Below, piece after piece: positions 1-9,977 of a stretch of DNA of 16,250 bases (its first letter is position 1; each line of letters opens with the position of its first letter). The stretch lies in assembly GCA_048941285.1 (NCBI GenBank), contig JBHLNS010000064.1:1-16250 (forward strand), written 5' to 3'. This DNA is from Promethearchaeota archaeon (GTDB lineage: Archaea > Asgardarchaeota > Lokiarchaeia > Sigyniarchaeales > SOKP01). The position numbers and the translations under genes were made by a program. The notes under the pieces are model-generated. The model ran no database searches and was not told where the DNA came from. It saw nothing but the letters and a program-made list of their open reading frames with translations.

Positions 1-2
1 AA

Positions 3-71
3 TATCAACAAATGGGAAAGGATTATATTTTTGGAGGAGTTGAGGTAAATAAAGAAGAGGAGGCGGCATAA
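3..71 (+). CDS. 3' end of an upstream CDS (partial, ...YQQMGKDYIFGGVEVNKEEEAA*); product unidentified, possibly another Hdr subunit
   Basis: Frame 3 is open from the window edge to TAA at 69-71, 1 nt before the hdrA TTG. The other two + frames stop earlier. The fragment is too short to assign a family. Confidence 0.6.
   Translation, partial: YQQMGKDYIFGGVEVNKEEEAA
57..66 (+). promoter_or_regulatory. Shine-Dalgarno-like motif (GAGGAGGCGG) for hdrA
   Basis: GGAGG core about 9 nt upstream of TTG 73. Similar motifs precede mvhD (GGAGGTG ~2083), mvhG (GAGGAGG ~2525), ORF 3782 (GAGGG ~3771) and tusA (AGGAG 6271). Confidence 0.6.
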
Positions 72-72
72 T

Positions 73-2109
73 TTGACTGTAAAAGAAGAAAAGTTAGAAA
101 ATGTCAAAAGTTTAGGGGAAAAGGTTGTTAGTGCTGAGGATGATGAACCACGAATTGGAGTATTTGTATGTCATTGTGGACACAATATTGCAGGAACTGT
201 AGATGTAGCTAAAGTTGCTGAATATGCTTCAACATTACCTAATGTTGTTAAAGCAGAACATTATATGTTTATGTGTTCAAAACCTGGAGTTCAAATGGTT
301 AAAGATTCTATTAAAGAATTAGGTGTTAACAGAACCGTTGTAGCATCATGCTCCAAAAACCAACATGGAAGAACTTTTGCTAATGCAATTGAAGAGATGG
401 GTCTTAATAAGCATAGACATCAGCAAGTAAATGTACGAGAATATTGTAGTTGGGTTCATCAAAAAGAGAAAGAAAAAGCAACAGATAAAGCAATGAAGCT
501 TGTTGAAGCAGGAGTCAATAGAGCAAGAAAGTTAGAAGATGTTGAGACTAGGAAGATTCCCACAACTAAAGCAGCATTAGTAATAGGTGCTGGCATAGCC
601 GGGCTTAGATCTGCGCACGATATGGCTGAGTTGGGTATCCCAGTTTATTTAGTTGAAAGAAATTCAACAATTGGAGGTCACATGACACAATTAAATAAAA
701 CTTTTCCAACGTTAGAATGTCCACAATGCTCAATCTCTCCATTAACAAATGGAGTTGCAAACCATCCCTTAATAGAATTATACACGAATGCTCAAATTAA
801 AAATGTTGAAGGTTCAATGGGCAATTTCGAGGTAGAGATTGAAATTAAGCCTCGATATGTGAATGATAATTGTACTTCTTGCGGAGAGTGTGCCCTTCAT
901 TGTCCAGTTGAAGTCCCTAGTGAATGGGATAGTGGAATGTCGATGAGAAATGCAATATATAAAGCATATCCACAGGCGATACCTGCAACTTACGTACGAG
1001 ATAAGAAAGCATGTATTGAGTGCAATACTTGTATAAATGTTTGTCCTGTTCAAGCAGTCGACTTTTCAATGCAACCAGAAACAAAAACATTTAAAGTTGG
1101 TTCGATAATAGTTGCAGCGGGTTATGATGAATATGATCCTACTGAAATTGAACCGTATCATTATGGGCAAGAAGGTTATGAAGATGTTATTACACAGTTA
1201 AAATTAGAGCGAATGCTTTCACCAACATCGCTTACAAACAGTCAGGTTTTACGTCCCTCAGACGGTAAAATCCCTAAAAATATAGTGATGATCCAATGTG
1301 TGGGGAGTAGAAATGATCAAGTTGGGAATCAATATTGTACTGGAGTGTGTTGTAAGTTTGCGATTAAAAATGCAAGAATAGTTAAAGAAATGTATCCTAA
1401 TGCAGATGTAACTATCTGTTATATCGATGTGAGAACTCCTGGATTGAATTTTGAAGAGTTATATAAATCTGCTCAAGAAGTTGGAGTGAGATTTATTAGA
1501 GGTCGTCCTTCAGAGGTTTTAAAAGATCCGATTTCAGGAGAATTAAAAGTTATTGTCGAAGATACATTGAGTCAAACACCTTTAAAGCTTAAAGCAGACT
1601 TAATTGTACTTTCCGCTGCAATGGTACCCCCTGAAGGTATTGGTCCTTTAGGATCGAAATTACATGTACTTCGGTCTAAGGAGGGTTTCTTAAAAGAATT
1701 TCACATCAAAATGAACCCTACACTAAGTAGTAAGGGAGGAATTTTTCTAGCTGGCACTATTCAAGGTCCTAAAGACATTTCAGAGACTGTTGCTCATGCG
1801 GGAAATGCTGCTGCATTAGCTGCAGCTCCATTGGTCAAAGGATATGTTGAGAAAGAGATGTTAATCCCTTCAATAGATTATGATTTATGTGTTAATTGCG
1901 GATTGTGTAAAACTGTCTGTGCTCCAGCTGCAATTGAAATTAGTACTGATGGAAGCCCAATTGTTAATGAAATTGCATGTAAGTCATGTGGTATGTGCAT
2001 GCCAGCATGTCCAACAGGAGCAATTCAATTATTAAATTTCACAGATAATCAATTACTAGATGAAATAATTGCCGTATCAGGCGGAGGTGCTGTCTGCGAA
2101 AATGAGTGA
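73..2109 (+). CDS. hdrA: Heterodisulfide reductase subunit A (FAD, multiple [4Fe-4S]); TTG start
   Basis: RIGVFVCHCGHNIA, NVREYCSWVH, GAGIAG FAD motif, GGHMTQLNKTFPTLECPQC, inserted ferredoxin (CTSCGEC...CP, CIECNTC...CP), QCVGSR...YCTGVCC, GPKDI, C-terminal 2x[4Fe-4S] domain. Confidence 0.97.
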   Translation: MTVKEEKLENVKSLGEKVVSAEDDEPRIGVFVCHCGHNIAGTVDVAKVAEYASTLPNVVKAEHYMFMCSKPGVQMVKDSIKELGVNRTVVASCSKNQHGRTFANAIEEMGLNKHRHQQVNVREYCSWVHQKEKEKATDKAMKLVEAGVNRARKLEDVETRKIPTTKAALVIGAGIAGLRSAHDMAELGIPVYLVERNSTIGGHMTQLNKTFPTLECPQCSISPLTNGVANHPLIELYTNAQIKNVEGSMGNFEVEIEIKPRYVNDNCTSCGECALHCPVEVPSEWDSGMSMRNAIYKAYPQAIPATYVRDKKACIECNTCINVCPVQAVDFSMQPETKTFKVGSIIVAAGYDEYDPTEIEPYHYGQEGYEDVITQLKLERMLSPTSLTNSQVLRPSDGKIPKNIVMIQCVGSRNDQVGNQYCTGVCCKFAIKNARIVKEMYPNADVTICYIDVRTPGLNFEELYKSAQEVGVRFIRGRPSEVLKDPISGELKVIVEDTLSQTPLKLKADLIVLSAAMVPPEGIGPLGSKLHVLRSKEGFLKEFHIKMNPTLSSKGGIFLAGTIQGPKDISETVAHAGNAAALAAAPLVKGYVEKEMLIPSIDYDLCVNCGLCKTVCAPAAIEISTDGSPIVNEIACKSCGMCMPACPTGAIQLLNFTDNQLLDEIIAVSGGGAVCENE

Positions 2110-2554
2110 ATGTGAATATATAGAACCAGAAGTTCTTGAGAAAATTAAAGATGTTGTAGTATTTATGTGTAATGAGTGTGGTCAAGGATCTGCAAATACA
2201 GCAGGAGTCGCTCGAATGGCTTATGAACCATCCATTAGAATTATTAGAGTACAATGTACTGGCCAAGTTGGTCCAATCCAAATCATGGATGCATTGAACA
2301 ATGGAGCTGATGCAGTAGCCTGTGTAGGATGCTGTTTAGGGGCATGTCATTTCTTTAATGGTAATATTCTTTCTATGCATAGAATCAAACTCATGAAAAA
2401 ATTGTTCAAAGAATTAGGTTATAGTGATCAGTTTATTAATCAATATACCTCACGAGCAGCGGAAGGTGAAACTGCAGTTGGAGATTTTGAAGATATGATT
2501 GAAAGATTAGCAAATGCAATAAGAGAGGAGGGTACGATAAAAGATGGATGTTAA
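2102..2554 (+). CDS. mvhD: MvhD/FlpD-family [2Fe-2S] adaptor subunit, about 150 aa (start re-called at ATG 2102)
   Basis: VFMCNEC..SANTAG, IRIIRVQCTGQV, GADAV..VGCCLGACHF.NGN match MvhD motifs. ATG 2102 overlaps the hdrA stop by 8 nt (ATGAGTGA) and has GGAGGTG upstream, which fits better than the 2069 start in the ORF track. Confidence 0.92.
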   Translation: MSECEYIEPEVLEKIKDVVVFMCNECGQGSANTAGVARMAYEPSIRIIRVQCTGQVGPIQIMDALNNGADAVACVGCCLGACHFFNGNILSMHRIKLMKKLFKELGYSDQFINQYTSRAAEGETAVGDFEDMIERLANAIREEGTIKDGC

Positions 2555-3779
2555 GATATTTCAATTTAATGGATGCAATAAGTGTTTTAATGAAACAATA
2601 CTCCTAAAAGAGAATTCAAAGTATTCAACACAATTTATTTCAAATCCGGGAAATTGGAAGGAAGAAAAAGTAGATGTTGCTGTAATTACCGGTTATTTAT
2701 TACCAGAGGATAAGGAGATCTTAAAGAAGATTAAAGCAAATTCAAAACAAGTTATTGCTTATGGAAATTGCACCACGACTGGTGGAGTTTTTGCTCTTGC
2801 TAATCAAAGGGGACATAGTGTGATTCCAATAAAAAAATTAATTGACCCTTCAATTGAAGTAAACGGTTGTCTTGGAGAAGTCGAAGAATTAAAGCTAGCT
2901 ATTGACGGATCAGAAAAACCAAAATTGAAAAATTTATGTGATGTATGCGAGAGAAAAAGAACTTGTGATTATTTAGATGAAGTACATCGTCAAATCGAAT
3001 TAATCGATGATAAAACTTGTTTTAATGATTTAGGTTTTCTTTGTAATGGATTTGTAGCAAAAGAATGTAAAGAAAGATGTATCAATTTTAATACACCATG
3101 TAGAGGATGCAAACCTTCTGTTGAGCGTTCTGGTATTAGAATGTTAGGCATGTTTGGTACTTTAATGGGTAATATTGAGGTGGCTACTGAGCATTCTGAA
3201 AAAGGAGCAACAGATAAACTTGCTGATAATGAAGACGATGTGATCCGAAGTTTACCCGATATTGTTGGGAATTTCTTTAGGTTTACATTATCAACATCTG
3301 GTTTACCTAAAGGGCGAATTCCATCTACAGGTAGTTTACTTGAGGATGTGTTTGCAGGAAGATTAATAGAAGAATTACCTTTAATTTCAGGATTATTAGG
3401 GGGAGACAAATGGATTTCATTAACACTCAAAATAATTGAAAGTTATGAAAATGCAAATAAAATAGAAATCAGCGCAGAAACTCAGAAAAATCGTAAAAAA
3501 TTACTTAAGTTAGAAAACGACCTACAAAGTGCCATAAAGGAAGAAGATCCAAAGCAATATCGGAAAATTACTGATGAAATAAGGAAAATTGCGGGAAATA
3601 TGAACCTTTCAAATGTATTTTTTGGTGGTTTTAAATCTCAAATCAAAGATGATGATAATTTTGAGGAATATAAAAGCCGAGTTTTTGATGTGGTTGAGGG
3701 TACTTATAAGAATGGTTCAGTTGAATTCACAATTGATCCAATTGGAATTGTAAAAGAAATTAAAGTTAAAGAGGGATAA
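2544..3779 (+). CDS. MvhG/FrhG-like [NiFe]-hydrogenase small-subunit homologue with about 150-aa C-terminal extension
   Basis: Proximal-type ligands GCNKC, VDVAVITG, IAYGNCTTTGGV and NGC. Medial/distal ligands LCDVC, CF..LGFLCNG and CKERC...PCRGC. MvhG-like tail LPDIVGNFFRFTL. Overlaps mvhD by 11 nt. Confidence 0.85.
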   Translation: MDVKIFQFNGCNKCFNETILLKENSKYSTQFISNPGNWKEEKVDVAVITGYLLPEDKEILKKIKANSKQVIAYGNCTTTGGVFALANQRGHSVIPIKKLIDPSIEVNGCLGEVEELKLAIDGSEKPKLKNLCDVCERKRTCDYLDEVHRQIELIDDKTCFNDLGFLCNGFVAKECKERCINFNTPCRGCKPSVERSGIRMLGMFGTLMGNIEVATEHSEKGATDKLADNEDDVIRSLPDIVGNFFRFTLSTSGLPKGRIPSTGSLLEDVFAGRLIEELPLISGLLGGDKWISLTLKIIESYENANKIEISAETQKNRKKLLKLENDLQSAIKEEDPKQYRKITDEIRKIAGNMNLSNVFFGGFKSQIKDDDNFEEYKSRVFDVVEGTYKNGSVEFTIDPIGIVKEIKVKEG

Positions 3780-3781
3780 AT

Positions 3782-6250
3782 ATGAGTTTTGAATTATTAA
3801 GAGAAGAAATAGTAGATGCGGGTTTATGCCAAGGATGTGGATTATGTGCTGGCTCTTGTAAACATATTGAAATGGAAGTTAAACGTCCAACACTGAAAGA
3901 TTACTGTATTTTAGAAAGAGATGGGCAAGATTGCGGAAAATGTTACCAAAACTGTCCTCAAGTAATCCAAAAGAAATTTGAAGAGAAACAACCACTAGCA
4001 GTTTACTCCTTAAGGAGTAAAGATCCTGAAATTTTAGCAAAAGCTTCAAGTGGAGGTTTTGTAACCACACTCGCTAAAGAATTGCTAGAAAACGAAACTC
4101 TTAAAGAAATCATAATGGTTCAAGAGGAAGATGAAAAACCGACTGCTGATATTGTTTCAGATCCAGATGAGGTAATTCAGAAAGCTGGCGTTATTTATGG
4201 TAGATCTGGAGTTTTACAAAGATTAGTAGAGCTTACTGGTAAAAATTTCGATCCAATTGGAATTGTTGGTGTACCATGTGAAATGCGTGGAGCAGCTGAA
4301 CTTGAAGAAGAAATGAATAGAAAAATTCTAAAAATTGGTTTATTCTGTAGTTCTCAAATGAGAACTGAACAAACAGATAAGGGTTTAGTATGTTCCCCAT
4401 GTTGTAATGGTTGTCCTTCGGGAGTTAATGCTCAAGGATATATTTCATTGATACGTCAAGGAAAATATCAAGATGCTGTAGACTTAATTAGAGAAAAAAA
4501 TCCACTCCCATCTATTTGTGGAAGAATTTGTACAAATGAATGTGAACATGGATGTACTTTAATTGGAGATGACCATCCCGTCGCAATTCGTGAACTAAAG
4601 AAGTTTGTTACAGAATGGGAAATTGAAAGGGCTAAAAATACTTCAAAAACGAAAGCTAAATTAATTAAAAATGCCAAAAAAGTAGCAATTATTGGATCCG
4701 GTCCAGCTGGATTAACCGCTGCTTATTTTTTAAGAAGAATGGGTTATGCCCCGACTATATTCGAGAAGACGGATCAAACAGGAGGGATGCTAAGATTTGG
4801 TGTACCACAATTTAGATTACCTAATTATGTATTAGATTATGATGTGGGTAGAATCATAGATTCTGGGGTTGAAGTTGTACTCAATAAACCTTTAGGTCCT
4901 GAGATGACTATTGACGATCTAAAAAATAATGGTTTTGAAGCTATTTTTATTGCCACTGGCCAATATAAACCCCGTACTTTACACTTAGAGGGGGAAACTT
5001 TACCAAATGTGCATGTAGCGATTAGTTTTCTAATGGATAGAAAGTATCGATATTGGGAAAACAAAGAAGAATTTAAAGGTAAAACTTTAGGTATAATTGG
5101 AGGCGGAGCAGTTGCTGTTGATGTTGCTCAAACAGCACTTAGATTAGGTGCTGAGAAGGTTCACCTTGTTGATATCATGTCAGAAGAACAACTTGAACTG
5201 GTGTTAAGGGATATCCCTGAAAATGAAATGGATTTTATGGAATATCACTTTAAGACTTCAACTTTAAAAATTACTCAGAATAAAGAGAAAAAATTAGTTT
5301 TAAATTGTTATCACATTGAGTGGGGTAATCCTGATAAAAACAGAAAAAGAGCATTAAATAAAATTGAGGATTCAGATTACGAGATACCTGTTGATTCTAT
5401 TGTAATCGCAGTTGGTCAAGCAGTAGATTTCGAACAGATAGATGCGGCAACAGATAATAAATTGGAAAAGGAACGAAACAAAATAAAAGTAAATGAAGTT
5501 ACTTTTGAAACAAATATCCCAGGAGTTTTTGCGGGTGGAGATATTATTAACAACTCTAAAGCTGTAGCGATTGCTGCAATTTCTCATGGAAAGGAAGCAG
5601 CATTTTCAATTGACCGATATTTAAAGGGAGAAAACTTAATGGAAGGAAGATTTAAAATAGAAAATTCATTTTTTACTGGACCTAAGAAACCACCGAAGGA
5701 TTACTCATTAAAACCAGAAACTCTAGGAGATGCAACTGAAGAAATTAGCTGGAGTTTTGAAGAGATTGATAAAATGTTCAATGAAGATATGGCATTACAA
5801 GAAGCACGAAGATGTCTAAGTTGTAATCATTTCTGTTCTCATTGCCAAGACTTTCCAGCAATATATTCCGATATCACTGCGGGAGAAGTAGGATCAAAGG
5901 ATGGCTATACAACAGTTGTAATATGGACTGAACATGGTAAAGAGCTTATTGAACAAGCAGTTGAAAAAGGATTATTCGAACAGGGAGAAGTTGATGAGGA
6001 AGAATTGAAAAACGCAATTAACCTTAAATCGAAACGTGAATTATTGAACTTTGAAAAAACGCCTAGACAGCAAGTATTAGATTATATTACACTCCAAGGA
6101 TCAAGTACTATTTCGGATATCTCAAAAAATGTCAGACTTGAGCCTAAGAAAGTTAGATATGAAGCTTTACGCTTAGTTCAATTAATGGAATTAGAAATGA
6201 AAGCTGATCCTGATATGGATGAACCTATATTTTCAATTATATGTGATTAA
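3782..6250 (+). CDS. Multidomain Fe-S flavoprotein: ferredoxin + FrhB/FdhB fold interrupted by a GltD/NfnB-like NAD(P)H oxidoreductase + C-terminal winged-helix-like domain
   Basis: Ferredoxin: CQGCGLCAGSC and CGKCYQNCP. FrhB first part: SSGGFVTTL, VGVPCEM, IGLFC. GltD part: PCCNGCP, NPLPSICGRIC..ECE.GC, GSGPAG, GGMLRFGVPQFRLP, GGGAVAVD, GVFAGGD, EARRCLSC. FrhB resumes: CSHCQD...SDITAGEVGS.DGYTTVVIWTEHG. HTH-like tail: RQQVLDYI...STISDIS...KVRYEALRL. Confidence 0.9.
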   Translation: MSFELLREEIVDAGLCQGCGLCAGSCKHIEMEVKRPTLKDYCILERDGQDCGKCYQNCPQVIQKKFEEKQPLAVYSLRSKDPEILAKASSGGFVTTLAKELLENETLKEIIMVQEEDEKPTADIVSDPDEVIQKAGVIYGRSGVLQRLVELTGKNFDPIGIVGVPCEMRGAAELEEEMNRKILKIGLFCSSQMRTEQTDKGLVCSPCCNGCPSGVNAQGYISLIRQGKYQDAVDLIREKNPLPSICGRICTNECEHGCTLIGDDHPVAIRELKKFVTEWEIERAKNTSKTKAKLIKNAKKVAIIGSGPAGLTAAYFLRRMGYAPTIFEKTDQTGGMLRFGVPQFRLPNYVLDYDVGRIIDSGVEVVLNKPLGPEMTIDDLKNNGFEAIFIATGQYKPRTLHLEGETLPNVHVAISFLMDRKYRYWENKEEFKGKTLGIIGGGAVAVDVAQTALRLGAEKVHLVDIMSEEQLELVLRDIPENEMDFMEYHFKTSTLKITQNKEKKLVLNCYHIEWGNPDKNRKRALNKIEDSDYEIPVDSIVIAVGQAVDFEQIDAATDNKLEKERNKIKVNEVTFETNIPGVFAGGDIINNSKAVAIAAISHGKEAAFSIDRYLKGENLMEGRFKIENSFFTGPKKPPKDYSLKPETLGDATEEISWSFEEIDKMFNEDMALQEARRCLSCNHFCSHCQDFPAIYSDITAGEVGSKDGYTTVVIWTEHGKELIEQAVEKGLFEQGEVDEEELKNAINLKSKRELLNFEKTPRQQVLDYITLQGSSTISDISKNVRLEPKKVRYEALRLVQLMELEMKADPDMDEPIFSIICD

Positions 6251-6283
6251 ATAAAAAATTAAAATAATTAAGGAGAGAAAAAA

Positions 6284-6520
6284 ATGAAATTTGATATGGA
6301 ATTAAATGTCTGCGGATTAGTATGCCCTGTTCCAGCCTTAAAAACCAAGAAACAACTAATGAAGATGAGACCTGGAACTGTTTTAAAAGTTATAACAGAC
6401 TACAAACCCGCAAGTGAATCTGTTCCACGTGATTTAGCAAAAACTAAACATAAGCATTTAGGAACAGACTTCATAGAAGACGATGAGCAATGGTACATGT
6501 ATTTTGAAGCTGTAAAGTAA
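6284..6520 (+). CDS. tusA: TusA/SirA-family sulfur carrier protein
   Basis: 78 aa with LNVCGLVCPVPALKT (CPxP persulfide motif) and G.VLKVITD. AGGAG ribosome-binding site at 6271. Confidence 0.92.
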   Translation: MKFDMELNVCGLVCPVPALKTKKQLMKMRPGTVLKVITDYKPASESVPRDLAKTKHKHLGTDFIEDDEQWYMYFEAVK

Positions 6521-6563
6521 CTTTTTATACTTTAAAATTTAATTTTTTTATTCTTTCTTTTTT
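6521..6563 (+). terminator. Oligo-T archaeal-type intrinsic terminator region after tusA
   Basis: Several T-runs (TTTTT, TTTTTTT, TTTCTTTTTT) immediately after the last gene of the operon. The AT-rich background lowers specificity. Confidence 0.5.
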
Positions 6564-6683
6564 GAGATATTTAATACTATTTTTTATAATATTCTCTAGG
6601 ATTTTTAACCATCTTATTTGTATATTTTTAAAATTTAAAAATAGATAATTTTCAAATTATATGAATTTCTCTTTCTTTTAATA

Positions 6684-7310
6684 ATGCTCAGTTCAACAGT
6701 AGTGAGAATCTTCATAATTATTAGTTTTTTCTTATTTGGTTATAATCTCACATATATTATATTGTTTAAAAAACGACATAAAATTCAAAATAATAATGAA
6801 ATTAATAATAAATTGAAAGAAACGAGAACATTTGCTAAGATTGGGATACATATAATTAACATCTTTATTTTCCTGTGTTGTTTGAATATTTTTATTTATA
6901 ATTATTGGGCACTAATCTTTCCAAAAATTGATTTACCAATTATAAGTGATGTTCTCCAAATAGTAGGTTTTACTTTAATAATAGGTGGAAATATTGTACT
7001 TTTATTAGCATACAGAAAGTTAGGCGTTCACTGGTCTTATCCTATCGATGGAAAAAAAAAGCAGAAAGAACTCGTCACCACTGGCATTTACGGGAGAATA
7101 AGACACCCCATTTATTTATCTTTTAATATTTTTTGTATTGGTTTCAATTTATTACTTTTAGATTGGTTTTTGATATCTTTATATATCATTGGGGCGATTG
7201 GTTTATATTTTCAAGCAATTGATGAAGAAAAAATATTAATCGAATATTTTGGAGATGAATACATAGAATATATGAAAAAAACAGGAAGATTTTTTCTCAA
7301 GATCCATTAA
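6684..7310 (+). CDS. Isoprenylcysteine carboxyl methyltransferase / PEMT-family integral membrane methyltransferase
   Basis: Several hydrophobic segments plus signature motifs ELVTTGIYGRIRHPIYL and EEKIL..YFGDEY.EYMKKTGRF. Confidence 0.9.
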   Translation: MLSSTVVRIFIIISFFLFGYNLTYIILFKKRHKIQNNNEINNKLKETRTFAKIGIHIINIFIFLCCLNIFIYNYWALIFPKIDLPIISDVLQIVGFTLIIGGNIVLLLAYRKLGVHWSYPIDGKKKQKELVTTGIYGRIRHPIYLSFNIFCIGFNLLLLDWFLISLYIIGAIGLYFQAIDEEKILIEYFGDEYIEYMKKTGRFFLKIH

Positions 7311-7374
7311 TAATTAAAGTAAAAACATACTATTTTTAATTTATAAGAAATTTAGCCCAAGATGGGTTTTTATA

Positions 7375-8106
7375 ATGTCCATTGAAAAAAATTTCATTGA
7401 TGTTAAATCATCAAAAAGCCCTGAGGAGATAAACAATTTTTTAGTTGAATTGAGTAAAAAACCTTCTATAGAATATCTTAAATTCCTCGACTATTTTATC
7501 ACTAATCTAAAACCTCAGGTTTTTGAAAAAATTAAATTAAATTTGGTTTACTTGATTGGTGAGCTTGGTAATTTGATTCCTATAGAAAATAAATATTTAA
7601 AATTATTGATGGAAATATATTACGGTTCAGATAGATGGATTAGAAACGAAATAATACAGGCAATTAACAAAGTAGCGTTAAATACTAAAGTAGGAGATGA
7701 GATCGTTAAGTTAATAGGATATGCTATAAATGATGAGTATCATCCAATTAAAGTTAATGCTCTTAAAGCTTTATTAAATTTTGATGAGAATCCCATTTTG
7801 ATAAGAAGGAATCTGTTTTTTACATTAAATAAAAAAGATTTAGAATTAGAAGAATTATGTGTGAGAATTTTTGAAAAATTTCTTCCAGATTTTTATGAAT
7901 TATTTAGTTCACTTTCATATTCAGATAATTATAAAATTTTGAAACCAAGAGCTATCAGGACTTTATTACTAGTATATTTTAAATCTCCATTTAATTTAGA
8001 ATCCTTTCGGGAAAAGGTTTCCTTATCGAATTGGGAAATTGAATATAAAGAAAGATATATTAGAGAAATTGATATGTATGAAAATATTTTATTAAAAAAT
8101 ATATAA
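7375..8106 (+). CDS. Hypothetical alpha-helical protein with HEAT/ARM-like repeats
   Basis: 243-aa ORF with repeated HEAT-like units about 38 aa apart (IKLNLVYLIGEL; DRWIRNEIIQAINKV; DEYHPIKVNALKAL). Confidence 0.65.
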   Translation: MSIEKNFIDVKSSKSPEEINNFLVELSKKPSIEYLKFLDYFITNLKPQVFEKIKLNLVYLIGELGNLIPIENKYLKLLMEIYYGSDRWIRNEIIQAINKVALNTKVGDEIVKLIGYAINDEYHPIKVNALKALLNFDENPILIRRNLFFTLNKKDLELEELCVRIFEKFLPDFYELFSSLSYSDNYKILKPRAIRTLLLVYFKSPFNLESFREKVSLSNWEIEYKERYIREIDMYENILLKNI

Positions 8107-8116
8107 AGAATAATGT

Positions 8117-9337
8117 TTATTGATATTTTATAAGAATCTTTTCCAAATCTTCGTTAGATAATAGGATTTCATTAAAAATTTTGTTTAACATCTTTATAAT
8201 TTTTCTGGGATTACCTTTTGAATAATTATAAATATATTCTAATACTGAATCGTTAAGTGGATAAAAGGAATCTGAGAAATCTCTGAAATAATCAAAATAA
8301 TTAATATTACCAAAAAAAAATTCCATATTTTTCTTATAAAATATTAAGAGGTCCTTTTCTATAAAGTCAGATAAAATAATAGGTTCTTTCAATAAATCTA
8401 TAAGATGGTTATTTTTATCTTCGAATTTATCTTTTATTTCCTTGTAATAATCGAGTGATTTCAGAGTTATAATTATTCTTAAACCCTTAATTTTATTCAA
8501 ATTGACTATTTTATCTAATAATTTCTCTGCTGTTCGCTTATCCGGAGATTCTTTGCTCCCATAGAGCCAACTTCGATCAAAGAATTCTTCTTCTTCTTCC
8601 TCAATTGATATTGGTTTTGTCATAGAAATAATTTTTTCGAAATCATCAATAAATAAAACACTATTTACCATTGAATTTTCTACTAATACTCTCAACATTG
8701 TGTATGAGTGATTTCTCCCTCTCAAGTCATGGCTTAAACCTAACCTTGAAAGTTCTCTTATATCAATAACCTCACCTAAGAACCATCTCTCAACTTCTAA
8801 CTTTTTATATGGATCAATTTGATGAGCTGTGAATGCATTTATTATATCTTTTATTGAAGTTTGATGCTCAAAATTAGGTGCCCAATTTTCAAAAGCTACT
8901 TTCCTGACTTTTTCAATATCGGCTAAATGGAAAAAACCAAACCTTCTTTTCAAGGCACCCCAATTATTACATAATCTCCTCGCAATGCTTCTTAAAACGT
9001 CAATGCCCATATTTTCAATAAATTCGGAATAAATATAATAATAAAATTTCTGAACAACTTCCTCTAAAGAAATATAGATAATATTATAGTAATATAATTC
9101 ATGCTTTAAAGCCCAATATAAATGAGTTTTTCCAGTACCAACATCTCCTATTATCGGTAAAATAAAATTTTCATCTTTTTCAATTATATTAATGATAGAG
9201 TAAAATAAATCTTGTCTTGATGGTACTAATCCAATATCTTCTTCAATTTCACCAGTAGATACGAATTTTTTAAAAGGAGACCCCGTAAATTTCAATAGAT
9301 TAAGCAGTTTTTGTTGTTTGTTTTCATATAGAAGCAT
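8117..9337 (-). CDS. P-loop NTPase, AAA+-like, of uncertain subfamily
   Basis: Walker A IIGDVGTGKT, Walker B VLFIDDFE, lid/sensor-2-like YPL...GNPRKII, and a helical insertion between Walker A and B. Confidence 0.85.
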   Translation of the reverse strand: MLLYENKQQKLLNLLKFTGSPFKKFVSTGEIEEDIGLVPSRQDLFYSIINIIEKDENFILPIIGDVGTGKTHLYWALKHELYYYNIIYISLEEVVQKFYYYIYSEFIENMGIDVLRSIARRLCNNWGALKRRFGFFHLADIEKVRKVAFENWAPNFEHQTSIKDIINAFTAHQIDPYKKLEVERWFLGEVIDIRELSRLGLSHDLRGRNHSYTMLRVLVENSMVNSVLFIDDFEKIISMTKPISIEEEEEEFFDRSWLYGSKESPDKRTAEKLLDKIVNLNKIKGLRIIITLKSLDYYKEIKDKFEDKNNHLIDLLKEPIILSDFIEKDLLIFYKKNMEFFFGNINYFDYFRDFSDSFYPLNDSVLEYIYNYSKGNPRKIIKMLNKIFNEILLSNEDLEKILIKYQ

Positions 9338-9353
9338 TTTAAATCTATTCCAT

Positions 9354-9977
9354 TTATATTTTTAATTCCTCTATTCCTAATATTATAATATATTCAACTA
9401 CTTTATCATCCACGCTTACAATTGGTTCATAACTTATATTAAGTTCATCATTTTTATCTCTTCCAACAATTAAGCAATCATAAAAAACTGGATCTCCATT
9501 ATCATCAATTACTACCCTATCAGCAACGATAATTCCATTTCTAATCATAGAGATAGGGTTTTTTAAGATTTCTCCTTTAAAAAAATCTAAGTGATTTACA
9601 CCATATTTTAAATCATTAATAAATAAACCAGCAGTGTGTAATAGATTAATAGTGAATGGAAAATCATTTGAAAACTGACCTTGATCATATTGTTCCATCG
9701 TGTTTTCTGGTATCAAGACAACATATTCTAGTGGATTATCTTCTGCATTCCACTTGAAATCAGTATTTCTTGAAAAGGGGTTAAAATTATTATCTATTTT
9801 TTCAAAACCTACAACTAATCCTTCAGATATACTAATTCCTTCTAATTCTGATACAGTTATATTATCAGAAAATATTATCTTATCTTGCCATTTTGATATA
9901 ATTGAACCCGTAAATATTCCATTACTCTGTATCCCTTTTAAAGAATCAAATAAAATAAAATTAGGCGAATTTGGCAT
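9354..9977 (-). CDS. Hypothetical protein, acidic and beta-rich
   Basis: 207-aa ORF with ATG start, ending 16 nt upstream of the ATPase start and probably co-transcribed. No motif recognised. Confidence 0.7.
   Translation of the reverse strand: MPNSPNFILFDSLKGIQSNGIFTGSIISKWQDKIIFSDNITVSELEGISISEGLVVGFEKIDNNFNPFSRNTDFKWNAEDNPLEYVVLIPENTMEQYDQGQFSNDFPFTINLLHTAGLFINDLKYGVNHLDFFKGEILKNPISMIRNGIIVADRVVIDDNGDPVFYDCLIVGRDKNDELNISYEPIVSVDDKVVEYIIILGIEELKI

Follow-up and report, generated by a model that had tools for sequence, protein, structure and literature searches.

How can a single polypeptide hold both an FrhB-type domain and a GltD/NfnB-like flavoprotein, and what would such a protein do? 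This question is raised by the last of four abutting, co-directional genes (hdrA, mvhD, an mvhG-like gene and the gene in question, called here the target; positions 73-6250) in the stretch of DNA that we analysed. The stretch, called the window below, comprises the first 16,250 bases of contig C6 from the bin of an Asgard archaeon (Promethearchaeota/Lokiarchaeia-type; 3.55 Mb, 94% complete). Judged from its sequence, the GltD/NfnB-like module of the target is a nested insertion within the FrhB domain and not a tandem fusion. On balance, we think that the target is probably a subunit through which F420H2 and NAD(P)H donate electrons to, or accept them from, a hydrogenase-free HdrABC-MvhD-MvhG' complex genetically tied to TusA, DsrE and DsrH, where MvhG' stands for the MvhG-like protein; we hold this reading with moderate confidence. 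The cofactor content, the use of F420 and NADH, the electron path, the substrate and the direction that go with it are ones that we infer.

The target consists of a ferredoxin domain, the N-terminal half of FrhB, a GltD/NfnB-like module of 488 residues (197-684), the C-terminal half of FrhB and a winged-helix-like tail, in this order:

3782-6250, + strand: the whole target, a nested FrhB::GltD/NfnB-like protein of 822 amino acids plus stop (open reading frame, Pfam, NCBIfam).
3782-3991, + strand: ferredoxin domain at the N terminus, residues 1-70; its eight cysteines could ligate two [4Fe-4S] clusters.
3992-4369, + strand: FrhB N half, residues 71-196, with the ligands Cys166 (PC) and Cys189 (GLFC).
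4370-4651, + strand: Fe-S domain of the insert, residues 197-290 (Fer4_20, 82 bits).
4652-5641, + strand: dinucleotide-binding domains of the insert for flavin adenine dinucleotide (FAD) and NAD(P)H, residues 291-620 (Pyr_redox_2, 100.5 bits).
5642-5833, + strand: return linker of the insert (residues 621-662, low confidence) and its tail ending on RC-x2-C (Cys678, Cys681).
5834-6061, + strand: FrhB C half, residues 685-760, with the ligands Cys685 and Cys688 (CxxCxD) and the motif DI..G.VGS..G.TTV.
6062-6247, + strand: winged-helix-like C-terminal tail, residues 761-822, found in the long, scar and empty forms described below.

We observed that Pfam FrhB_FdhB_N matched residues 74-145 (54.7 bits, cut-off 22) and that FrhB_FdhB_C matched in two stretches (71.5 bits, cut-off 23.3). 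Fer4_20 lay at residues 190-283 and Pyr_redox_2 at residues 299-603. All four had been anticipated in a preliminary description of this DNA, which had also proposed the insertion. In the profile search of the genome, nucleotides 4256-4381 corresponded to positions 4-49 of FrhB_FdhB_C and nucleotides 5780-5998 to positions 79-149; about 466 residues separate the two matches and profile positions 50-78 are missing. Because Fer4_20 and Pyr_redox_2 interrupt the FrhB_FdhB_C match, we read the module as nested. The NCBIfam models and the sequence search of the PDB gave the same order. Residues 3-190 aligned with Fsr, FwdI (8rja_E), ACDS zeta (8riu_B) and FrhB, the ferredoxin domain among them with those of Fsr and FwdI, and residues 683-762 aligned again with FwdI and FrhB. 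The N part matched FrhB at residues of about 9-139, and the C part matched FrhB 192-261 and FwdI 272-340. For residues 201-688 the matches were NfnA 9n5u_A (2.3e-87), 9bov_A, StnC 8oh5_C and NfnB 4ylf_B. A role in glutamate synthase, with the module as the GltD partner of GltB or in an F420-dependent form, was rejected, as the operon holds no gene of the large subunit.

The cluster motif of FrhB-type proteins is given for Fsr as PC-X40-C-X54-C-X2-C (PMC10229431). In the target the spacing was PC-X22-C-X495-C-X2-C. The four ligands, Cys166 and Cys189 before the insert and Cys685 and Cys688 behind it, were conserved in all of the 45 full-length forms over which cysteines were counted. The FrhB ligands are thus split around the insert, as had been claimed. 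The same conservation (45/45) was found for each of the cysteines 16, 19, 22, 26, 42, 51, 54 and 58 of the ferredoxin domain, for Cys207, 211, 246, 250, 254 and 258 of the insert, and for Cys678 and Cys681; Cys204 and Cys208 were present in 42 of the 45. Further, the GxGxxG (FAD) and GxGxxA (NAD(P)H) loops of the insert were aligned and conserved. The motif sets of both flavin modules are conserved, in agreement with the two flavin sites of the preliminary description. All regions of the target were about equally conserved (identity to P0001 of 0.74-0.90 among 42 close forms).

Stand-alone relatives of the insert (P0147, P0255, P0237 and P0194) end on an RC-x2-C motif. Therefore the RCLSC of the target is part of the insert, and FrhB resumes at Cys685. 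The junctions had been placed correctly: Cys189 of GLFC lies at 4346-4348, Cys204 at 4391 and Cys681 of RCLSC at 5822-5824, and the FrhB motif returns with Cys685, three residues beyond RCLSC. The end of the protein had been set too early, at 6050. The reading frame ends at 6250, and a conserved tail of 62 residues (6062-6247) had been left out. We propose that Cys678 and Cys681 complete the second cluster of the insert. If so, the N and C ends of the insert would meet in its Fe-S domain, and the FrhB cluster would have its nearest ligand just four positions along the chain from a ligand of an insert cluster.

The structural models are in agreement with this layout. The AlphaFold2 model of the whole protein had a mean predicted local distance difference test (pLDDT) of 84.7 and a predicted template modelling score (pTM) of 0.68, and confidence was low only at the two linkers (pLDDT <50 at residues 191-203, 634-640 and 645-655). 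When residues 1-196 and 676-822 were folded as two chains, the interface score (ipSAE, interaction prediction score from aligned errors) was 0.74 (0.76, 0.74 and 0.74 in the runs), and the best of three controls gave 0.00. The mark set for such two-chain folds was reached by 58 of 80 solved complexes, compared with 2 of 110 mismatched pairs. The partners had a pLDDT of at least 77, and at least 79% of the contacts were shared between runs. Strand 72-78 was predicted to pair with 709-715 and strand 183-186 with 697-699, and the interface held residues 163-166, 183-191 and 683-688, including all four cluster cysteines. The FrhB halves are thus predicted to re-associate, as the preliminary description had expected, with both pieces still resembling one FrhB domain. 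This result may partly reflect likeness to known folds, because solved FrhB-type folds exist. When the whole model was compared with the PDB by Foldseek, the listed chains were all of the NfnB/GltD/DPD type, with no FrhB-type chain among them.

The C-terminal tail had no Pfam match. It was modelled with pLDDT of about 90 as three helices (761-772, 777-784 and 788-800) and two strands (804-807 and 816-819), and it was aligned in 12 of 12 rows of the comparison of long, scar and empty forms. Its role may lie in docking or dimerisation and not in the binding of DNA.

Such an unusual arrangement raises the question whether the gene is real. We found more than 120 full-length homologues (72-94% identical) in many assemblies, named only "FAD-dependent oxidoreductase" or similar. 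In a survey of 400 Asgard genomes the full-length gene was present in 65, and 10 more held pieces cut by contig ends. As counted from the listed rows, 64 of the carriers belonged to the order of the window's own organism (families f1, f3 and f4) and one to family f16. Clustering at 50% left only two further full-length representatives, P0124 (56%) and P0125 (45%); the other matches concerned the cassette alone. An assembly chimera was rejected, given the full-length homologues in many independent assemblies and in 65 of 400 genomes. The target stretch was also found in 20 public DNA runs of 9 studies. Logan contigs of four runs from four studies (X1, X2, X5 and X10) covered 26-30 of 30 bins and ran over both junctions without a joint, though the pieces were short; the weight of the evidence lies with the many independent assemblies. 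The 5' junction was covered by X10 record 10 (4351-4453) and X5 record 26 (4190-4389), and the 3' junction by X2 record 23 (5389-5828) and X1 record 8 (5815-6175). One X1 contig skips 5340-5492. Two copies in other genomes contain in-frame stop codons. Genome G140 carries tandem copies (C357:1665-3665 and 4443-6890), the second of which starts at residue 147 and has one in-frame TGA, and the copy of genome G281 (C175:23394-25838) has one in-frame TAA. Pseudogenes, sequencing errors and recoding are possible explanations.

What the protein may do is indicated by its neighbours. The three genes upstream of the target in the window are:

73-2109, + strand: hdrA, 678 amino acids, TTG start; best NCBIfam match HdrA2 over residues 27-668 (740 bits, cut-off 1100).
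2069-2554, + strand: mvhD (FlpD family), 161 amino acids as listed, although the true start may be later; Pfam FlpD, 112 bits.
2544-3779, + strand: mvhG-like homologue of hydrogenase small subunits, 411 amino acids; Pfam Oxidored_q6.

The HdrA2 model was the best match of the window's HdrA plus MvhD. The MvhG-like protein aligned with the MvhG chains 9sw2_E and 5odc_E through residue 255 and retained the cysteines of the small subunit. Its extension (about residues 256-411, ~155 residues) was free of cysteine and conserved across an alignment of 16 orthologues; AlphaFold2 modelled the protein poorly (mean pLDDT 52.8). For this C-terminal part we noted a weak atlas lead to [NiFe] large subunits (0.78-0.79, under the mark of 0.9). 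No gene of a hydrogenase large subunit was found in the operon, and the two [NiFe] large subunits of the genome lie on other contigs.

In related loci (Pfam, locus L004) the operon reads tusA, dsrE, dsrE, dsrH, dsrE2-like, hdrC, hdrB, hdrA, mvhD, mvhG-like, target. A homologue of FrhB/FdhB, a homologue of MvhD and HdrABC thus share one operon. For the counts of its genes we used 37 loci in which the match begins at the protein's N terminus, taking as denominators the loci with enough upstream DNA. The MvhG-like gene was present in 35/35, mvhD in 35/35, hdrA in 32/32, hdrB in 31/31, hdrC in 29/29, dsrE2 in 25/25 and tusA in 22/22 (four at 55-58% identity). The target was the final gene in 35 of 35 loci, and the slot was the same for long, scar and empty forms. 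From these relatives we infer the upstream half of the operon for the organism of the window. The genome also encodes CofH, CofE and CofD (profile search, above cut-offs) and about eleven genes of the FrhB family (matches to FrhB_FdhB_C). HdrA-like matches were seen on ten contigs (C3, C4, C31, C43, C47, C54, C67, C78, C80 and C85); several were tandem or double HdrA, and some stood beside FrhB-like genes. The genes downstream of the target were unrelated. They include a PEMT/ICMT-type methyltransferase (6684-7310) and several open reading frames without a Pfam match, and the GC content, about 0.34 in the operon, drops to 0.23-0.27 behind it (window about 6000-9500).

We propose the following path for the target as a donor arm of the Hdr complex. 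The FrhB-type host fold would bind FAD and one [4Fe-4S] cluster and carry the two-cluster ferredoxin domain at its N terminus; the insert would bring two [4Fe-4S] clusters, FAD and a site for NAD(P)H, spliced between cysteines 2 and 3 of the FrhB cluster. With Cys678/681 of the insert and Cys685/688 of FrhB ligating neighbouring clusters, the FrhB cluster would be a three-way node. One branch would lead to the FrhB flavin (F420), the second to the clusters and flavin of the insert (NAD(P)H, probably NADH in this clade), and the third, by way of the N-terminal ferredoxin domain, MvhG' and MvhD, to the bifurcating flavin of HdrA. In this way F420H2, NAD(P)H or both would reduce ferredoxin together with a disulfide- or persulfide-type substrate from sulfur carriers, or the reaction would run in reverse. 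We suggest a carrier-bound persulfide or similar as the substrate of HdrBC because the operon contains sulfur-carrier genes. The literature gives precedents for the steps. The solved FrhB-type relatives FwdI and ACDS zeta are ferredoxin-FrhB modules that reduce F420 and use the ferredoxin domain at their N terminus for docking and wiring (PMC11493965). In subunits of the ElpB/FdhB type, F420H2 is oxidised and the electrons travel by MvhD/ElpC to HdrA, with ElpA described as an adjacent relic lacking cofactors (PMC12350162). HdrA2B2C2 performs bifurcation driven by F420H2 (PMC5296606), and in the NfnL-like domain of NfnA, NADPH is oxidised at a non-bifurcating FAD and feeds a chain of clusters (PMC12018979). 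A complex of frhB, hdrA and mvhD products has been proposed for Korarchaeia (PMC10667645), and the idea of a persulfide substrate has already been raised for the hydrogenase-linked Hdr of another Asgard archaeon (bioRxiv 10.1101/2025.07.22.663070).

The operon also bears on the transhydrogenase suggested in the preliminary description. As a free-standing F420H2:NAD(P)+ oxidoreductase, the target would act alone and equilibrate the two hydride pools. Two hydride-type flavin modules in one chain with a common Fe-S path speak for this, as does the absence of a canonical Fno at cut-off: in the 94%-complete genome the only npdG-like match (G000:C20:27161-27748) scored 93.7 bits with TIGR01915 against a cut-off of 149.8. 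The target is, however, strictly the last gene of an Hdr operon. Moreover, it retains the two-cluster ferredoxin domain, which serves docking and wiring in the solved relatives (PMC11493965), and the scar forms remain in the operon although their NAD(P)H module is gone. We therefore consider a free transhydrogenase improbable, and less likely than the Hdr donor arm. The lack of Fno at cut-off leaves room for a side role of the target in F420:NAD(P) exchange.

Scar and empty forms of the protein allowed us to follow the history of the site. The empty forms come from distant Asgard relatives, are 343-355 amino acids long and 36-39% identical, and have 17 residues between Cys2 and Cys3. The scar forms (P0283, P0286, P0128, P0294, P0297, P0310 and P0312) are 366-399 amino acids long, are 69-79% identical over the first 200 residues and have 52-71 residues at this site. 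They have lost the flavoprotein core and retained the last two Fer4_20 cysteines (RC-GC) and the RC-x-SC tail. These four cysteines possibly hold one extra [4Fe-4S] cluster. The alignment shows that the FrhB motifs are retained in scar and empty forms. Of five genomes searched for the scar form, G183, G204, G209 and G264 gave no match with this query, and G260 contained it:

Locus L053 (G260:C4:55000-72000), about 3890-5029, - strand: scar form in an 11-gene operon identical to that of the long form.

In genome G312, of another family of the phylum, the empty form stands behind hdrC-hdrB-hdrA-mvhD-mvhG', with dsrE, dsrE, dsrH and tusA downstream. When metagenome contigs were scanned with P0335, an empty form, only four weak matches to unrelated loci were obtained. 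A quick tree search on the FrhB columns alone (68 rows, 336 columns) placed the empty forms as sister to long plus scar forms (support 95) and the seven scar forms in one clade (99) nested within the long forms. We conclude that the insert was gained once and that one internal deletion followed. Further, since scar and empty forms occupy the same operon slot, the FrhB-like subunit appears to be the donor that is conserved, with the NAD(P)H module as an add-on.

It had been suggested that the insert replaces the beta-rich segment of FrhB. This was not demonstrated by our comparison: the nearest insert-free relatives have only the 17 residues at the site, compared with 56 residues in outgroup FrhB-like proteins and 54 in Fsr. 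The immediate ancestor probably had a short Cys2-Cys3 loop already.

Where did the cassette come from, and which nucleotide does it use? Its nearest relative (56% identity) is the cassette of a paralogue of 920 amino acids in the same genome (G000:C49:2492-3952; L043 421-3183, - strand), in which an HdrC-like ferredoxin part is followed by the cassette and two CCG (HdrB-like) domains. In the tree of insert modules (64 rows) seven FrhB inserts and two cassettes of the paralogue type formed one clade (98) and were interleaved. A Tyr-Arg-Arg after strand beta-2 is a determinant of specificity for the 2'-phosphate of NADPH. At the end of this strand we found Val-Asp-Ile in P0001 and four close forms, Val-Glu-Ile in P0124, and Tyr-Arg-Arg in P0125 and most relatives. 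To go by this motif, the NAD(P)H site of the insert would probably take NADH in the clade of the window. Val-Asp-Ile was common to both proteins of the window's lineage (FrhB insert and 920-residue paralogue), and both proteins of the deeper lineage (P0125 and P0130) retained Tyr-Arg-Arg. The shared change suggests either exchange between the paralogues (gene conversion) or a lineage-wide switch of cofactor, with only two cassettes of the second kind sampled; we take it as a lead.

The likeness of the insert to NfnB/NfnL (4ylf_B 1.2e-67, 5jca_L 1.8e-58) could also mean that its FAD bifurcates as in those proteins, giving two bifurcating flavins in series or in parallel; two sites have been suggested for the HdrA::NfnB fusions of ANME-1 archaea (anaerobic methanotrophic archaea; PMC9012536). 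We consider this very improbable for the target. Among solved structures, the modules of NfnA and StnC are closest to the insert, and their FAD is described as non-bifurcating (PMC12018979). In addition, a search for a partner of the NfnA/NfnS type, with its [2Fe-2S] cluster and second FAD, covered the 11 genes of the relatives' operon and found none, and the non-cysteine cluster ligand discussed for bifurcating enzymes was not assignable in the insert. In a more far-reaching variant, the FrhB cluster would be a redox switch by which F420 and NAD(H) are drawn on or interconverted during bifurcation to ferredoxin and carrier-bound persulfides, and the nested flavin might be a second gating or bifurcating site. 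We think this quite unlikely. If it were true, the cell would have a built-in transhydrogenase coupled to sulfur reduction, and the long, scar and empty variants would be an evolutionary series of gain and loss of a donor module in a bifurcating enzyme.

Several observations weigh against the target as an F420H2 and NAD(P)H arm of a sulfur-linked Hdr complex. Contig C6 starts at hdrA, with only window positions 1-72 upstream, and the half of the operon from tusA to hdrB is missing from the assembly. An orthologous upstream half was not assembled elsewhere in the genome either, the best other HdrB being 42% identical. No RNA run was among the listed sequencing runs that hold the target stretch. 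In at least four near-complete genomes of the same family, the queries used detected no long and no scar form; the system is therefore dispensable. The assignment of NADH versus NADPH depends on one sequence motif. The Cys2-Cys3 segment of 54-56 residues of canonical FrhB-type proteins is absent across the whole Asgard clade. Finally, the target scored under every NCBIfam equivalog cut-off (frhB TIGR03289 80.8 vs 331.5 bits; FpoF NF040616 83.6 vs 475; PRK09325 112.2 vs 269; PRK12771 387.7 vs 516). The target is a member of the FrhB/FdhB/FpoF family by its Pfam matches but, by these scores, not an orthologue of FrhB or FpoF.

The missing segment and the scores under the FrhB and FpoF cut-offs would fit a donor of NAD(P)H only, in which the FrhB part is an F420-dead scaffold for Fe-S cluster and flavin and the nested module is the sole entry of hydride. 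This we regard as unlikely, though the missing segment is the main doubt about our reading. Empty and scar forms hold the same Hdr-operon slot without an NAD(P)H module and retain the FrhB motifs, and in these lineages the FrhB flavin is the sole hydride site encoded in the operon. In the long forms the FrhB halves are conserved as well as the insert, and the genome contains genes of F420 biosynthesis. We therefore keep to the target as an entry for both F420H2 and NAD(P)H.

In summary, the protein shows cleanly how a domain can be inserted amid the ligands of a metal cluster. One operon slot occurs in three natural states, which offer a ready comparison for biochemistry, and the conserved link to TusA, DsrE and DsrH gives a testable candidate for the reduced substrate of HdrBC in Asgard organisms. 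These archaea are non-methanogenic, and their energy metabolism bears on models of eukaryote origin.

Among known systems, Elp-Hdr is the closest characterised analogue of the proposed complex. Elp-Hdr of Methanothermobacter marburgensis (ElpABC-HdrABC, PDB 8RVU family) and FdhAB-MvhD-HdrABC (7BKB) likewise use hydride entry by an FrhB/FdhB-family subunit (PMC12350162). In Elp-Hdr, MvhD/ElpC connects to HdrA, a catalytically empty relic subunit lies adjacent, and no active hydrogenase is required. ElpB, however, has no nested NAD(P)H module, the neighbouring subunit is an FdhA relic there and an MvhG-like small subunit here, and the sequence match of the target to 8rvu_E was weak (3.2e-06). 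Operons of the window type also differ by their sulfur-carrier genes, in an organism without known metabolism of the heterodisulfide of coenzymes M and B (CoM-S-S-CoB).

The best solved matches to the FrhB halves are FwdI (8RJA_E) and ACDS zeta (8RIU_B) of Ca. Ethanoperedens and the N-terminal half of Fsr (7NP8). They share the two-cluster ferredoxin domain leading into an FrhB fold with the PC...C...CxxC cluster, but their Cys2-Cys3 spacer is domain-free (about 54 residues), compared with the flavoprotein of 488 residues in the target, and they serve other partner enzymes. For the insert, the best matches in both sequence and fold are the NfnL-like modules of NfnA (Bfu-type NfnABC, 9N5U, 9BOV) and StnC (8OH5), which are modular entries for NAD(P)H with FAD and two [4Fe-4S] clusters that feed a cluster chain. 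There, the module is the N-terminal domain of a NuoG/Fdh-like subunit and is not nested, and its Tyr-Arg-Arg is replaced in the target.

Nesting of this kind of cassette has a precedent. The preliminary description had compared the insertion to HdrL, which we take to be HdrA with an inserted NfnB-like domain. In the window, hdrA (73-2109) is a separate gene and the host of the cassette is FrhB, not HdrA. The analogy was apt nonetheless, as Chadwick et al. (PMC9012536) describe for ANME both the NfnB-like cassette inside HdrA and many FrhB paralogues. In HdrA9-11 of ANME-1 a cassette of ~500 residues is nested in a loop of an Hdr-system protein (PMC9012536); the host is the inserted ferredoxin domain of HdrA rather than FrhB, and the cassettes are only 34-39% identical to that of the target. 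The 920-residue paralogue carries the nearest relative of the insert, with the same Val-Asp-Ile change, but its host is a protein of ferredoxin and CCG domains (HdrC/HdrB-like). The literature searched contained no account of a GltD/NfnB module within FrhB (the supplements of PMC9012536 lay outside the search) and nothing relevant on the entries 9R51/9R52. The building blocks and the nesting habit of the cassette are already known. The FrhB host, the site between cluster ligands and the natural series of empty, inserted and deleted forms are new as far as the literature searched.

The known donors of Hdr-type bifurcation are H2, formate, F420H2 and NADH, each with a separate delivery module. 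In the target, one polypeptide combines two modules for hydride cofactors, nested at the loop that binds the cluster.

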